Below are positions 23,153 through 57,966 of a stretch of 64,000 bases of DNA, one piece after another. The position numbers were made by a program, and so were the translations under genes. The notes beneath the pieces were generated by a model that did no database searches, was not told where the DNA came from, and saw only the letters and a list, made by a program, of their open reading frames with translations. Source of the stretch: Rozella allomycis CSF55 (taxonomy: Eukaryota); contig KE560678.1 in NCBI GenBank assembly GCA_000442015.1, positions 1 through 64,000 of the forward strand, given 5' to 3'. The first letter of the stretch is position 1. Each line of letters opens with the position of its first letter.

Positions 23153-23225
23153 GCCCGGCTAGCTCAATCGGCAGAGCGTGAGACTCTTAATCTCAAGGTT
23201 GCGAGTTCGACCCTCGCGTTGGGTG
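23153..23225 (+). tRNA. tRNA-Lys, anticodon CTT
   Basis: Cloverleaf: acceptor GCCCGGC/GTTGGGT, D arm AGCTCAATCGGCAGAGC, anticodon arm TGAGA-CTCTTAA-TCTCA, T arm GCGAG-TTCGACC-CTCGC; T-run terminator follows. Confidence 0.96.
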
Positions 23226-23347: not shown

Positions 23348-24606
23348 TTATTTTACAAATTCCCAATGTTCGCAATCTTTACAATCAGTTTCGTACTCAC
23401 AAGGAGGAAGTTCAAGAGGTTTAAGGAAATCTTTTATCAGCCAAGATAATTGATGATAGAGGATATCTCGTATTCCTTTCTTTGGATAGGCACATACCTT
23501 TCCAGTGTGACATTTACTCTCCATTGCATATCCTCCAATGTAACACGATGATGTTATTCCNCACTTTTCCAGTATGGCATTTACTCTCCATTGCATATCC
23601 TCCAATGTAACACGATGATGTTATTCCTCTACACTTTCCTGTAAATATTGGATCACTTTCTGTTCCGTAATGATAAATTTGAATGTTTGGATTTTGACCT
23701 AGTCCAAGACGTTCCGCGAATAGTCTTTCGCCGGGAGAATTAAATGTAATAGCTGGGATATCAAAAGTAAGAGATAAAAGTGCTGATAGACTCCCGCCTA
23801 AACTATGTCCTGTCAATGCCAAGTTCTTGTGTTTGATAATGTACTTTTGGACAAATTGGACAATTTTCTAACATATTATTTAAAAAGATATTACTTTTCC
23901 ATATTCGTAGTAGGATTTGTTAGATTGAAGTCTTGTTTCATCTTCGATGCAGGTGGAATTGCACATTTTTGTATTACCGTGATAGCAATTACAAACAGGG
24001 CGCCAAGTTCTATCCACTTTTGCACAGCAGCAAGAAAAAATAAAATTATCCTTTAATTTTCATCAATACTATGTACTGTATATTTATCATTTTTGGCAGT
24101 GTCACCGCCAAAAAACGGGAGAGAAGTGCCTTTAATAGCTATTATAGCCTCAGTTCGTTCTTTATTTTCAAAAAGATAACCTCTCACACTAGTTTCATTC
24201 CATCCAAACCCGATTCCCTATGCACATCAAATGTACTTCTTACCGTTGTTGGTGGCGGCGTCCATTCTGTTAAACTTTCGTCAAAAAAACTCAAAGAATT
24301 CTTAATATTTTTGTTTCTGGAAACCATATAAGGATCATTAGTTAGGATACGCAGGCTATCATTAACTGGTGGATGATATGCTATCATCGACATTCCAGCA
24401 GCCGCCAAAACGAATTCTTTATTCAAGGGATCAAAGAAACTAATGTTTTTCTTCAACATTACATTATCTCCAAATGTAAACTGAATTCTACTGCCGTGTT
24501 TCTCAGGAGAGTATTGCACAATATTTGTTAAGTAGAAGGTTTTAGAGGATGCAACTGAAATAAATATAATAAGGCCTATCAACAGAATAAGATACCGGTA
24601 AAGCAT
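23348..24606 (-). CDS. ATG15: Atg15-type vacuolar lipase (assembly duplication around N at 23561)
   Basis: N-terminal TM, FGWNETSVRGYLF, AIIAIKGTS, DNFIFSCCCA, LTGHSLGG, FNSPGE, DPIFTGKC, GGYAMESKCHTG. Confidence 0.9.
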
Positions 24607-41744: not shown

Positions 41745-43838
41745 ATGTTACAAACTAAGGAAAAGCAAACAAAGCTAACTGATTCTAGAAGAATTTCATT
41801 GGCAAGGACGACATCAGTTTTGCATCGTCACGAAAATGCGACTCTTGCGGCTTCATTACCGATGATTCCACTAGAATTAAATATTAAACTTGACAAGTTC
41901 GACGAGAAGCACGGGCAATTTGTTGATAAGCTAATAGATCTTTCGCGAGGAATGTACGTTCTTGATATTGAGGCCATTGATCTTGGATCGTTGAGATCAA
42001 TGATTGTAGATGTAGCATTAAAAGAGAAATATATCCATATGAAGAAACACCTTCTTGGTAAATAGTCTATTCTCCGTTTTTAGACTCTTTGCAGTTTTCA
42101 ACAATGTTGCTAAAGCAAATTGCAGACGAACGTGCTGAGAATAAATCTAAATCATGTAAATGGTATCCTTTTTTATGTTTTAGTGTGCATGCTAGATCTA
42201 CAAGATGAAATCGCAAAGTTGAAAAGAGAAATTTTGTGCGGAGATGTTTTGCAAAGTAGAATGTAAAGTGATGAAATTTATTAGGTTTAGAGATAACCTG
42301 GAAATGATGCTACAAGATGAAGTGAGAAAAAAATGCTCTTTAGAAAATGAACTGACAAAGATTAAAGACTCCTTTGACAGGCTTCAACTACGTTACAGAG
42401 AAAGTAGAAAGAAAGCGCAATCTAAGGAGCAAAAACCTGTCAGCCAAGCACCTCCAACTCAAGAAATAAAGACAATTGACTACGAAGCGTTGTTACGCGA
42501 AAAAGATGAATTGATAGACAAAATGGCCGAAAATATCAAGAATATGGAGTGTGAAATAGATGAATGGAAAGTAATTGGAATAAAGGCACAACGAAAATCC
42601 GAGGAAATTGAAAAGAAGAGAGCGTATAATAATACTTTATAATTTACATTTTAGTCAATTACTACAGGAAGTTTCTAATTTGCAAGCAACAGAGCGCATG
42701 ATTACTGATAAGAATGAAAATCTTACAAGAAAGCTAAAGTATATTACAGAATTTCAGTAAACAGGGATACTACAGAGAAGCTCCAACAATTTACCGAGCT
42801 TTACAATGCAAATAAGCAAACAGATCAACAGAGGAAATCTGATATTGATGAGCTGAATGGGAAAATTGAAGGATTACAAAAGCAGTTGGAAACATTGACA
42901 GTATTAATGATTTTCCAGTTTTGATTTTTAGAGGCAAAGAAAACAACTCCAAACAGAATTTTCGGCAACAGTAAAACAAAAACAAGAATTATTTGGAAAA
43001 TGCAGGTCACTGGAAGTAGTCATCAATTCTAAAAATGAAGAAATTGAAAACATCCGTGGAAAATTATCAGATACTATAAAAGACTACGAAACCAAGCTAG
43101 AGAGATGCGAGGAGAGGATTTATAGTCTCACGGAAAAGTTAAATGATGGTAACTGCGTTACAGTAATTGTATATTTAGCGGAAACGAGAAAGATGAAAGA
43201 ACCAGTTTTTGATCCATCGGCCTTGACTGAAATGGAGAACAAATTCAAATGTACATTATTTTTTTTAGAATGTTTTAGCGAAAGAGGCAGAGTATGAGTC
43301 AGAAATAGTCAGATATTCTAAATTGTTAAAGGAAAAAGACCACATAATACTCGGTAACTTGTTATTTATATCTATTAAAGACCTAAATACCAAAAACGAC
43401 GATCTTCGTCAACAGCAATTCGCTCCGAGAATGGAGAAGCTGAAAAATATTGAAAAGGACATTAAAGGAAAAATTGAAGATTATGCAATTGCAGAAGAAT
43501 TATTGGAAGTAATTACAACATGCTTAATCAATTCAGCTACAATTACTATGCCCTCGATGCGTTCAACCACTAAAAACGCCATTTACTTTTGCCCCATGTG
43601 GTCACTCGTATTGTCATGAATGTTTAAATTGGACGATAGAGGAAAATTATGGTAAAAATTTCTGCTCGGTAAATATTGCTGGTCTCTTTAAACATAGGAA
43701 TGCGATGAAAATCAAATCAAGCAAACAGAGGCCTATTGCAATGAAAAGCTTCAAGCTATCGTAGAACAATTTCTTTCTAGGAAACAATCGACAAAAGAAT
43801 TTTTGACGTGGATTGCTAACTTGCAAATGCCTGAATAA
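41745..43838 (+). CDS. Coiled-coil protein with C-terminal RING finger, many micro-introns
   Basis: Coiled-coil exons; CPRC...PCGHSYCHEC...CSEC RING after removing 28- and 29-nt introns. Confidence 0.75.
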
Positions 43839-43910: not shown

Positions 43911-44666
<756 letters not shown>

Positions 44667-53946: not shown

Positions 53947-55347
53947 TTATTTGAAAATATTTGAAAACATTTCTTTAGATTTTTTGTATCGTTTGTTTTC
54001 TAGCTCCAACAATTTCTTTCGCTCCCTTGCAATATCCGAAACATAGTCATTTTTCACAACATTTGGACAACTTTCTAATAATTTTTCAAACGCATTTAGG
54101 TCGTCCTTGGCAGAATCCAAGTCTCGCCCTTGAGAAATATACGCTTGAGCTCTTCTAAATAATGCTTTGAGGTTAGACGGATCTTTTTTAAGAATAATAT
54201 CTGCCTGAGAAATCGCTACTTTATAATCGCCCAATTTTAGTGCGCAAAGAATGTAGTTCAATCTGCAAGAGACTTGGAACCCCTCAATCCAATCTTTTGA
54301 AACACAAGAAGTCGGATCAGATTCTACTAAAGGATCAGACACATTATCTTTTCCTCTGGCGATTTCTGAAAACGATGGAAGCATTAGCAGATTTTCAATG
54401 TAGTCTAACACGAGTGCAAATTTAATAGACGCTTCCTTAAATTTACCCGACTTTACTAAAGAAACTCCTTCGTCTTTAAGCTGAGGTATCTTTTTAACTT
54501 TTTCAATAGCCGACAGTGTAAATGGGTGCTCATTCTCTTCAGTTATAAATTCAAGACATTCAATAGTAAACTCCAAAGGCATCCCGTCCAATTGATAAAG
54601 CTCTGAATAAGTGTCCAAATCTTCCATGAATCCGGCAGCGCAAGTTTTCTTTCCACCATTCTTCTTGTCTCTTATCTTCCTTAAAGCGATTTCTAGTTGA
54701 ATATATCCTTTAGACAGAGAATTAGACAATACGAATACAGATTTTTCTCCGACATTCATAGTTTTTACTATTTGTTCTAATGGCGGAAAGGAGAATGATT
54801 TATTCAAAAGGAGCTCGAAAGGTTCACCCGACTCTTTTGTGTCTGTTATTACATTTATCTTATTGCACACTGATAAAAAATCAGTTTGTTGCCCAGTTTT
54901 GCAAGATTCTCCCTCATGTGTTGGCTTGCAGGAGCTAGCATGATGATTACAATTCACATGTGCATGGCAATCTTTAGCATCATGTTTCTTCTCATCATCA
55001 GACTCATGCTCATCATCACCTTCAGTAATTTTCCGTTCCTTATGTTTATTAATGTCCACCCCCATAAATTTACTTAACAACTCTGAAGGGCTATCTTCTG
55101 ATATCCGTTCACATTCATTTTTGACTTTGTTACAAATATTTTCAAAATTTTCTTTATTATCTATGTGAAGGGGTATGGTAGAAACTCGCAGATGCATCTT
55201 CACTTTAGATGCTGACCATTTGGTGTCGCAAATCTTTCCAGGTTTGAAGATTAATTTGTACATGTCGTTGTTTATTTTGGAAAAGTCTGTTAAATCTAAA
55301 GTTGGATGGGATAATTTTGAAATCCAGTCTGTTTGTGTTGAACTCAT
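53947..55347 (-). CDS. AIP: AIP/AIPL1-like FKBP-TPR co-chaperone, intronless
   Basis: KVKMH...ITDTKESGEPFELLLNKSFSFPPLEQIVKTMNVGEKSVF, PLEFTIE, LSAIEKVKKIPQLKDEG, TPR LNY...NLKALFRRAQA. Confidence 0.75.
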   Translation of the reverse strand: MSSTQTDWISKLSHPTLDLTDFSKINNDMYKLIFKPGKICDTKWSASKVKMHLRVSTIPLHIDNKENFENICNKVKNECERISEDSPSELLSKFMGVDINKHKERKITEGDDEHESDDEKKHDAKDCHAHVNCNHHASSCKPTHEGESCKTGQQTDFLSVCNKINVITDTKESGEPFELLLNKSFSFPPLEQIVKTMNVGEKSVFVLSNSLSKGYIQLEIALRKIRDKKNGGKKTCAAGFMEDLDTYSELYQLDGMPLEFTIECLEFITEENEHPFTLSAIEKVKKIPQLKDEGVSLVKSGKFKEASIKFALVLDYIENLLMLPSFSEIARGKDNVSDPLVESDPTSCVSKDWIEGFQVSCRLNYILCALKLGDYKVAISQADIILKKDPSNLKALFRRAQAYISQGRDLDSAKDDLNAFEKLLESCPNVVKNDYVSDIARERKKLLELENKRYKKSKEMFSNIFK

Positions 55348-55368
55348 TTAGAATTTTTCGGAAATCAT

Positions 55369-57779
55369 ATGAATGTGTTTCACGAAGATGTAGTGTGTTT
55401 AAAGGATAAGATTGATGTAAAAGGTGTTGTTTCTGATACTATATTTGAAAATCAATCTATTCCTAAAGATTGTGTTGAAGTGTCATGGCATCAAGAACCT
55501 TATCCCGTGGAAATTATCGATAAGAAAGATTTGATAGTCACTAATAGATATCCTTTTTGTCTTATATTATTTTAAGATTGATTTTCCTTAATTTCAAATC
55601 GTTTTTACCGAGTGACATTGTTATGGATCCAAACGATCCTAGGAAGCTGCAGGGACTTGTAGTAAATACTAGAAGTGTATTGCATGTTCAAAACTGTTTT
55701 GATGATTCAAAGAAAGAATATGTTGTTGGAGATGATATGGTAGATATTGAAAAGGAATTTCTTGTTCAGGAAGGATCGTGGGTCAAATATAATGACTGGA
55801 TAGGAATTGTTATTGAAGTATGATAATGGTAAATCTAATAATTTAGGTGAAAACTGACTTTTATATTGCATTCAGCAATGGTGCAGTTTGCATACCAAAA
55901 GACTCAACAAAGTGTAGGCCGGCAAATGAAATAGACGAAGACTCTTATTGGTATGAAAGACATTTACCAGGACAAGTTATGATTTCAAAAAGATCTAATT
56001 TTGAAAAGGGAAAGTGGATTAAAGGATCATTTAAGAGTGCATCACATCATTGGAAAGGGGTACTAATGAAGACGGCCCATAAGAGTGTTTCGGTGATATG
56101 GAAAACAGTTAATCCAATTTTGCCCAATGATTCTGAAATTCTATCGTCTCCAAAAACTTTGTATGGCAATGAATTGAATAATTTGGAGGTATTTGACACA
56201 TTTTTATTATCTAAAATAAACATTGGATCAGTTGTGAAACTAAAGAAAGAAGCACTTGAAAACTTTAAAGATTTACCGATTGCCTGTAGCGATGAAAATT
56301 TCATGAACTATTGGATGGTTGTCGATCAAAAGACAACCGTAGATGTGCATTGGCAGGATGGGAAAATAGAAAATGAAATTTCTTCAGAGAAAATAATTCC
56401 AATTTTAGAGGCTGGTGAAACTGATTTGAGTGCCACTGAATTTGTTAAAAAGAATGAATCTGATAAATTAGGCATTTTGCAAAGTTTTGATCCTAATGAA
56501 AGAACTTGTACAGTAGGGTGGATCTCGAGTAACAGTGGAATGGTTGAAGGTGAATTGGAAGAATTAAGTATTTACGATGTTAAGGCAGACCCACAAGTTT
56601 CATTTTACATTATGAACATTGTGTTAAAAATAGATTCGATCCAAGACCCGAATAGCTGGGCTGGTGAAATAAGAAATATTTTGCCGAATGGATTAATTGA
56701 AGTTAGATGGACGACGGGGGTTACAGAAAATATTCCTTTCAAACATTTACATTTTGTTTATGATAGTTCTCAAGTTGATGACGAAGATCTTGAAGATATT
56801 TGTTATCCCCATGTAGATGACGATTGGATGACAATTGCAAGTGACGAGAATTCGGAAATAGATCAACAAGAAGAAAAAATATCTTTTGTAGATCTAGATC
56901 TAACTAAAAAGTTTAATATTTTGAGTATTAATGGAGATAACAAAGATTCTTTTAGCATTGATGAAAATGCACCATTAGATCATCTATTTTTACACAAAAC
57001 AATTCAATTTGCATCAAACGCAGCCAATGTGGCCATAAGGAAAGATTTTAAACTTTTAAAGGAATTACCTGAAAACATTTACGTTACAACTTTTGAAGAT
57101 AGAATAGATCTATTTAGGTCTATCATAATTGGATCCAAAGGTACCGTTTATGAATACGCAATGTTTCTATTTGATATTCAGCTTTCATCTAAACATCCAT
57201 TTGAACCTCCATCCGCGTATTACCATTGTTGGACTGATGGGCTAGGAAAATTAAATCCAAATCTCTATGAAAATGGAAATAGTAATTTTCATTTTTATTT
57301 TTTATCTAGTTTGTTTATCTCTACTTGGAACATGGGAAGGATTTGAAAAGGAAACTTGGTCTTCAAATTCTTCCATTTACCAATTATTACTTTCTCTTCA
57401 AGCTCTTGTTCTCGTCAGAGAACCTTACTACAATGAAGCGGGCTACACAAAATATCAGGGAACTGATGAAGGTCAAGTAGCTTCCATTCGATACTTGGAA
57501 AACGCTTTTCTGGGTTCCGTTAAATCAATTTTACATATCTTAAATCATCCACCATCTAATTATGAGGCTCTGGTTAAATTCTACTATATAGATTGCGGAA
57601 ATTTAGAAAAAGTCATTCAAAGGTGCGAAGCATTAGTACATTCCTCACAAGAACACGAAGAAAACATTTGTTCTTGGTATGATTCCACCAATCAAGATCA
57701 ATTCCCTCTTAAAAGAATTTCAAAAGGTGGCGCGAAATTGTTAACCCCCATCATAGAAACCTTGAAATCTTTTATTTAA
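55369..57779 (+). CDS. UBE2O: E2/E3 hybrid ubiquitin-conjugating enzyme UBE2O-like, 4 exons (first intron U12-type)
   Basis: NRSFLPSDIV, TTVDVHWQDG, RTCTVGW, FEDRIDLFRSIIIG, LNPNLYENG-ICLSLLGTW, LVLVREPYYNEAG. Confidence 0.92.
55548..55597 (+). other. Minor-spliceosome (U12-type) intron, 50 nt, AT-AA termini
   Basis: 5' ATATCCTTT; branch TTTTCCTTAAT at 55582-55592; removal fuses ORFs 55369 and 55557 to give VTNR|SFLPSDIV. Confidence 0.8.
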
Positions 57780-57966
57780 TAAAATAACAGTTTCAATTTT
57801 TTTGACAACATAGTTTATAGTACATGCAAATCTAAGCAAACTCTATACACTCAACTCCAACAATTGATAACTTTGAGATTTATTATAGTTAAAGATTTTT
57901 ATTCCAAAAATTGAAGCACTTGTTGACCCTTCCCAGTTGCCAAGCTTTTGAAAAATACAAAACACA

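Follow-up and report, generated by a model that had tools for sequence, protein, structure and literature searches.

Minor (U12-type) spliceosomal introns carry a donor of consensus RTATCCTTT and a branch site of consensus TTCCTTRAY, with AC and AG as their commoner acceptors, and in animals the branch A usually lies about 10–15 nt from the 3' splice site. Among non-canonical minor introns, AT-AA is the commonest class in animals and plants, and minor introns as a whole are biased away from phase 0, according to the main text of one survey (Larue and Roy 2023; PMC10639083). That text also documents lengths of about 40–50 nt for minor introns elsewhere, including those of Blastocystis, which have a mean just under 42 bp and a median of 39 bp, and it records minor introns together with snRNAs in the fungi Rhizophagus, Basidiobolus, Spizellomyces, Piromyces and Neocallimastix (PMC10639083). 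The survey is annotation-based and dropped introns shorter than 30 bp (PMC10639083). Minor snRNAs have likewise been reported in basal fungi by Olthof et al. (2024; PMC11347168), whose main text states that minor introns have a defined constraint on the distance from branch to 3' end and gives it no numeric limit. Neither paper mentions Rozella by name in its main text, although survey supplements may list it, and a full-text literature search covering main articles found no discussion of Rozella or Cryptomycota in connection with U12 or minor splicing.

Here we describe an interval at 55548–55597 (+) in a 64-kb stretch of Rozella allomycis CSF55 DNA (the window; GC 32–37%). It is probably a genuine U12-type (minor) spliceosomal intron with AT-AA ends, in phase 2, in a gene of the UBE2O family, and its motifs suggest that Rozella, a relative of microsporidia, still has minor splicing.

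The host gene and its first exon

The 499-codon ORF at 55847–57346 is 100% identical to the R. allomycis CSF55 hypothetical protein P0001 (699 aa; public model ROZALSC1DRAFT_28547). The host protein matches PF23046 (3.7e-10), PF23043 (1.7e-7) and PF00179 (3.3e-9), all above the Pfam cut-offs, and PF23044 at 20.9 bits, slightly below the cut-off of 21. The layout, consisting of tSH3-B, SH3-B and SH3-C of UBE2O and then a UBC core, is the combination of tandem SH3-like domains and UBC found in the UBE2O family. By its tSH3-B, SH3-B and UBC matches the gene is assigned to the UBE2O-family E2/E3 enzymes, in keeping with a preliminary description of this DNA that had named it UBE2O. P0001, used as a full HMMER query, retrieves 5842 homologues (E ≤ 0.001); those checked for their source come from chytrids, Piromyces, Podila, Calcarisporiella, Paraphysoderma and Sorochytrium, together with a Thecamoeba transcript. 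The gene is read as follows:

Exon 1, 55369–55547 (+): 59 codons with the ATG, plus the opening 2 nt of an Arg codon; unannotated; profile match.
Candidate U12-type intron, 55548–55597 (+): 50 nt, AT-AA, phase 2; top-ranked junction, carrying the donor and branch motif pair.
Exon 2, 55598–55817 (+): contains the annotated start Met at 55623; profile positions 73–143.
U2-type GT-AG intron, 55818–55846 (+): 29 nt; implied by P0001.
Exon 3, 55847–57281 (+): tSH3-B, SH3-B, SH3-C and the start of the UBC domain (Pfam PF23046, PF23043, PF23044, PF00179).
U2-type GT-AG intron, 57282–57309 (+): 28 nt; excision yields ...LYENGNICLSLLGTW, matching P0001.
Exon 4, 57310–57779 (+): remainder of the UBC domain, C-terminus and stop codon.

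P0001 begins MDPNDPRK, at Met 55623, eight codons into exon 2. The public model is 68 residues too short at the N-terminus, equivalent to half of the first SH3-like domain. The exon-1 peptide is absent from public proteins of 32–2000 aa in a collection of 5.8 billion sequences, so both the exon and the intron are unannotated there. AT-AA introns lie outside what gene predictors model, which is probably why the public model begins at an internal Met. The exon-1 ATG (55369, +) stands only 21 nt from the start codon of a divergent AIP/FKBP-TPR-like gene (55347, -), so that promoters and 5' UTRs have to extend into the neighbour's coding sequence; that there is hardly any room for them before this ATG counts against a start in exon 1. 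The stretch upstream, at 55202–55300 (+), on the strand opposite to the coding strand of this minus-strand neighbour, also holds a match to the C/D snoRNA snoZ247 (28.4 bits versus a gathering score of 38; E 0.21), which is probably due to chance.

Evidence for the first exon comes from a profile of the N-terminal domain, built from 28 homologues with Rozella left out and run, with no splice sites assumed, on the 1030 stop-to-stop ORF segments of at least 30 aa in the six frames of the window. Only two of these segments match: the ORF at 55342–55572 covers profile positions 2–73 (25.7 bits, E 4.4e-7) and ends at Arg, while the ORF at 55548–55820, beginning ..KS, covers positions 73–143 (35.6 bits, E 4e-10), such that the two matches adjoin at profile position 73. 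Exon 1 by itself scores 24.0 bits. With phmmer, a query made of the spliced product's N-terminal 150 residues aligns to the extreme N-termini of many homologues, and the alignments run without gaps across the junction (e.g. DLVVADRSFSHGDVV, IKVLDRAFLTGDIVIDPRDPKS and DLLLLDRSLLPGHVVLNPDD) in chytrids, Podila, Piromyces, Paraphysoderma and the Thecamoeba transcript (e.g. ..vvaDRSFshGDVV).

All combinations of donor and acceptor near the break that keep the frame and leave no stop were then scored against this domain, giving 2566 pairs and 1446 distinct products. The AT-AA junction 55548/55597 ranks first of the 2566, with 70.6 bits, and this in-frame scan found no usable GT-AG intron at the ORF break. 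Other ways of joining or starting the reading frame score lower:

Second-best junction: 67.8 bits.
AT-AG, 29 nt: 59.1 bits.
Best one-base frameshift repair: 54.5 bits.
GT-AG options: at most 53.2 bits; the top-scoring GT-AG intron is only 11 nt.
AT-AG, 65 nt: 45.1 bits.
Annotated start at Met 55623: 20.4 bits.

Homology strongly supports both the predicted intron and its exact junction, which is the one that the preliminary description had placed from the reading frames.

Two alternatives to an active intron bear on these scores. Translation could begin at Met 55623, with exon 1 and the U12 motifs forming a recent remnant that has been unspliceable since the lineage lost minor splicing. This would agree with the public annotation, which starts at 55623, would leave an intergenic spacer of 275 nt instead of 21 nt, and would suit a reduced parasite whose sister group, Microsporidia, is to our knowledge without minor splicing. 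It is nevertheless unlikely: exon 1 retains its ATG and 59 open codons, for which composition at 34% GC gives an estimated chance of about 1%, it still reaches 24 bits against the family profile with both 9–11-nt splicing motifs intact, and the truncated protein would begin partway through a conserved domain (20.4 versus 70.6 bits). Alternatively, a base missing from the assembly might break what is one continuous ORF, given that a one-base insertion anywhere in 55548–55572 joins both frames without a stop. The fused product, however, has a 17-residue insert in the conserved DR-Sf..GDvV strand and attains at most 54.5 bits against 70.6 for the spliced form, and two U12 motifs would be left to chance with 0.04 expected per window; we regard an assembly error as the least probable account of the break. 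On the opposite strand at about 23517–23613 (-), copies of a direct repeat of about 40 nt (GGAATAACATC...GGAGAG twice) stand on either side of a single N, an arrangement that resembles an assembly gap or duplication artefact.

Splice-site motifs and intron geometry

The interval opens with ATATCCTTTTTG and closes with ...TTTCAA. Its 5' splice site, ATATCCTTT at 55548–55556 (+), equals the U12 donor consensus at all nine positions and sits exactly at the homology-placed end of exon 1. The branch sequence TTTTCCTTAAT at 55582–55592 (+) fits the U12 branch consensus and is followed by TTCAA; the putative branch A is 55590 or 55591, 6–7 nt before the 3' end at AA, and there is no polypyrimidine tract. 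The frame from ATG 55369 (...DLIVTNR) meets TAA at 55573–55575, and the exon-2 frame is closed on its 5' side by TAG at 55545–55547; deletion of the 50 nt corrects the shift in phase 2 (AG/A = Arg) and gives ...DLIVTNR-SFLPSDIV... Since the intron and exon 2 both begin with AT, an identical mRNA would result from cuts at 55548/55597 (AT-AA), 55549/55598 (TA-AA) or 55550/55599 (AT-AT), of which only the first places ATATCCTT in the U12 donor register. The phase agrees with the preference of minor introns for phases other than 0, and the AT-AA ends are a documented non-canonical pair.

Chance provides a poor account of these motifs. The pattern ATATCCTT, 15–45 nt and TCCTTAA occurs once on both strands of the window against 0.04 expected, at least once in 4 of 100 shuffled windows, and once in 784 kb of unrelated metagenome loci from eukaryotes, read on the plus strand. 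RTATCCTT is found at six sites in the window, two of them with TCCTTRA within 120 nt; at one of the two (-12767) the TCCTTRA lies at offset 3 and overlaps the donor motif itself, leaving a properly placed branch motif at 55548 only. A relaxed scan returned 10 donor/branch pairs, and only that at 55548 falls at a break between ORFs. Because the motifs coincide with the single position where homology demands a junction, the probability that they arose there by chance is negligible. Candidates elsewhere were rejected for being inside a continuous 519-codon ORF (7581), within an ordinary 28-nt GTAAAT..TAG intron (42163) or antisense to a coding strand (41386(-) and 18778(-)). The ordinary intron in question, GTAAAT..TTTTAG at 42156–42183 (+), contains GTATCCTT internally and could be mistaken for a U12 donor. 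The candidate at 55548–55597 remains the only such intron in 64 kb, which we count against the U12 reading.

Local U2-type introns provide a contrast. Among the GTA..AG frame-changing candidates between long ORFs, 23/66 are 25–31 nt, the only length peak, and the two other introns of the UBE2O-like gene (29 and 28 nt) are both in the public model. What distinguishes the 50-nt interval from these introns is its length, an AT rather than GTA donor and a strong branch motif. Excision of the interval by the major (U2-type) spliceosome or another non-canonical route draws some plausibility from the fact that the Rozella major spliceosome already handles extreme introns of 25–31 nt. It is very unlikely, though, for a donor without GT or GC, unlike the local GTA donors, in an interval that exactly matches the U12 donor and branch consensus.

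A genuine minor intron might also end elsewhere. Three acceptors come into consideration: AG 55575–55576 (29 nt, AT-AG), AG 55611–55612 (65 nt, AT-AG, removing RSFLP) and AC 55607–55608 (61 nt, out of frame, giving a non-productive isoform). Removal of 29 or 65 nt keeps the frame, and AC and AG are commoner in U12 introns and would here lie 17–22 nt from the branch A, nearer to the usual spacing; the AC in particular, 11 nt past the AA end, is at 17–18 nt, a more usual distance. Even so, we consider a different 3' end decidedly unlikely: the 29-nt and 65-nt products score 59.1 and 45.1 bits against 70.6 for AA, the 29-nt version leaves the branch motif in the exon, and the AC version joined to the donor at 55548 runs directly into TGA.

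With the AA end retained, the spacing of 6–7 nt from branch to acceptor is below the 10–15 nt or so usual in animals and counts against the U12 reading. Very short spacings are also forced in the local 25–31-nt U2 introns, and the extreme compaction of all local introns may make the short distance plausible. In these respects the preliminary description largely holds. The 50-nt AT-AA interval with its U12 donor and branch can be read directly in the sequence, the spliced product has exactly the residues that were predicted, the AC 11 nt downstream is indeed out of frame (a 61-nt intron from 55548 breaks the frame), and the length is about twice that of local U2 introns (50 nt versus the 25–31-nt peak). 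The short branch-to-acceptor distance, described there as unusual, is the sole trait of the candidate that remains so. Two of its remarks went too far: no non-canonical class of minor introns is commoner than AT-AA in animals and plants, which tempers the idea of relaxed acceptor identity, and the intron is hardly very short for its type given that those of Blastocystis average 42 bp (main text of PMC10639083).

Homologues and minor-spliceosome components

The preliminary description had proposed checking whether UBE2O orthologues carry a minor intron at this position. P0001 as query found no close relatives in a metagenome scan, and an alignment of 25 family members was used for a scan that yielded 80 loci, 46 of them with N-domain matches; no U12-type intron occurs at the site in these 80 loci. 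Continuity through the site without an intron is seen in 43/46 N-domain loci (40 distinct sequences), and 2/46 do not cover it. One locus (L068; 68% GC) has a 96-nt GT-AG intron at 2746–2841 that interrupts the corresponding Arg codon, with a phase identical to that in Rozella (CG/../C; ..DLSVIDR-VFPYSEIV), and another (L020) has a GT-AG intron five codons upstream of the Rozella site. The absence of an intron in 43/44 homologues that cover the site is counted against the reading. The shared position in L068 counts in favour of the reading and fits an old intron, still U12-type in Rozella and U2-type in L068, though it may instead reflect parallel gain.

Rfam searches of the window found no U11, U12, U4atac or U6atac at the gathering score or at E ≤ 1, as expected for 64 kb. 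Rfam content amounts to one tRNA and the one sub-threshold snoRNA-like match; the tRNA gene, at 23153–23225 (+) and 59.9 bits, is the only match above its gathering score. The ORF at 44208–44663 (+) encodes a Tgs1-like protein with an RNA cap guanine-N2 methyltransferase domain (PF09445, 3.3e-28), an snRNA cap hypermethylase that is not specific to the minor spliceosome.

Among indexed sequencing runs, no RNA run matched 55300–57800, and the contigs of the single run labelled with the species gave no match to the stretch, an outcome that is neutral as to expression. Perfect motifs support a U12 type for the interval, and from them we infer its dependence on the minor spliceosome. During splicing, ATATCCTTT would be paired first with U11 and afterwards with U6atac, and U12, on pairing with TTTTCCTTAAT, would bulge out A 55590 or 55591 as the branch nucleotide. 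The 3' splice site would be the first usable dinucleotide downstream, the AA 6–7 nt away. Removal of exactly 50 nt from the transcript by the minor spliceosome is predicted to create the junction ..ACTAATAG/ATCGTTT.. within an Arg codon of the conserved '..vDR/Sf..GDvV' strand of the first SH3-like domain, and would splice the unannotated 5' exon (ATG 55369) to the annotated body to yield a protein of 767 residues.

A wider proposal, on which we find the balance even, is that Rozella, the closest intron-rich relative of Microsporidia, has a working minor spliceosome that is miniaturised like its major one. Its substrates would be introns some 50 nt long whose branch A stands 6–7 nt from an acceptor other than AC or AG, closer than is considered necessary in animals. 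Annotation would miss introns of this kind systematically, and minor splicing would have been lost after the split of Rozella and Microsporidia. If this is true, annotation-based surveys undercount or miss minor splicing in the Rozella lineage, and the loss of the minor spliceosome falls in the microsporidian lineage. More generally, minor introns whose exons were never modelled can escape annotation-dependent catalogues. The proposed correction would give the public gene model 68 more residues at its N-terminus, amounting to half of a conserved domain, and the candidate intron offers a concrete, testable marker for minor splicing retained in Cryptomycota. Confirmation of the junction would also probe how tight the geometry of U12-type splicing can be, with 50 nt of intron and 6–7 nt from branch to acceptor.

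Comparison with known systems

The Rozella protein has in common with the UBE2O family the tSH3-B, SH3-B and SH3-C domains and the UBC core, and the N-terminal domain of the family is regained once the new exon is added. It differs in being short (767 aa), and its identity to aligned UBE2O-family homologues is 27–33%.

The candidate intron shares with the AT-AA U12 introns of animals and plants the ATATCCTT donor, the TTCCTTAA branch motif near the 3' end, the lack of a polypyrimidine tract, the AA acceptor and a non-zero phase. In contrast to them, it is much reduced in length (50 nt) and has its putative branch A 6–7 nt from the 3' end, and its host is a cryptomycotan fungus in which its splicing is predicted. 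As in Blastocystis, a minor intron would occur in a compact genome at a length near the sum of its motifs (main text of PMC10639083). The minor introns of Blastocystis are mostly AT-AC, with half of them in phase 0, and its four minor snRNAs have all been found, whereas Rozella offers one candidate intron, seen at the level of the DNA. A further comparison is with Rhizophagus, Basidiobolus, Spizellomyces, Piromyces, Neocallimastix, Rhizopus and Phycomyces, non-Dikarya fungi that, according to the main texts of the two surveys, keep both minor introns and snRNAs (PMC10639083, PMC11347168).
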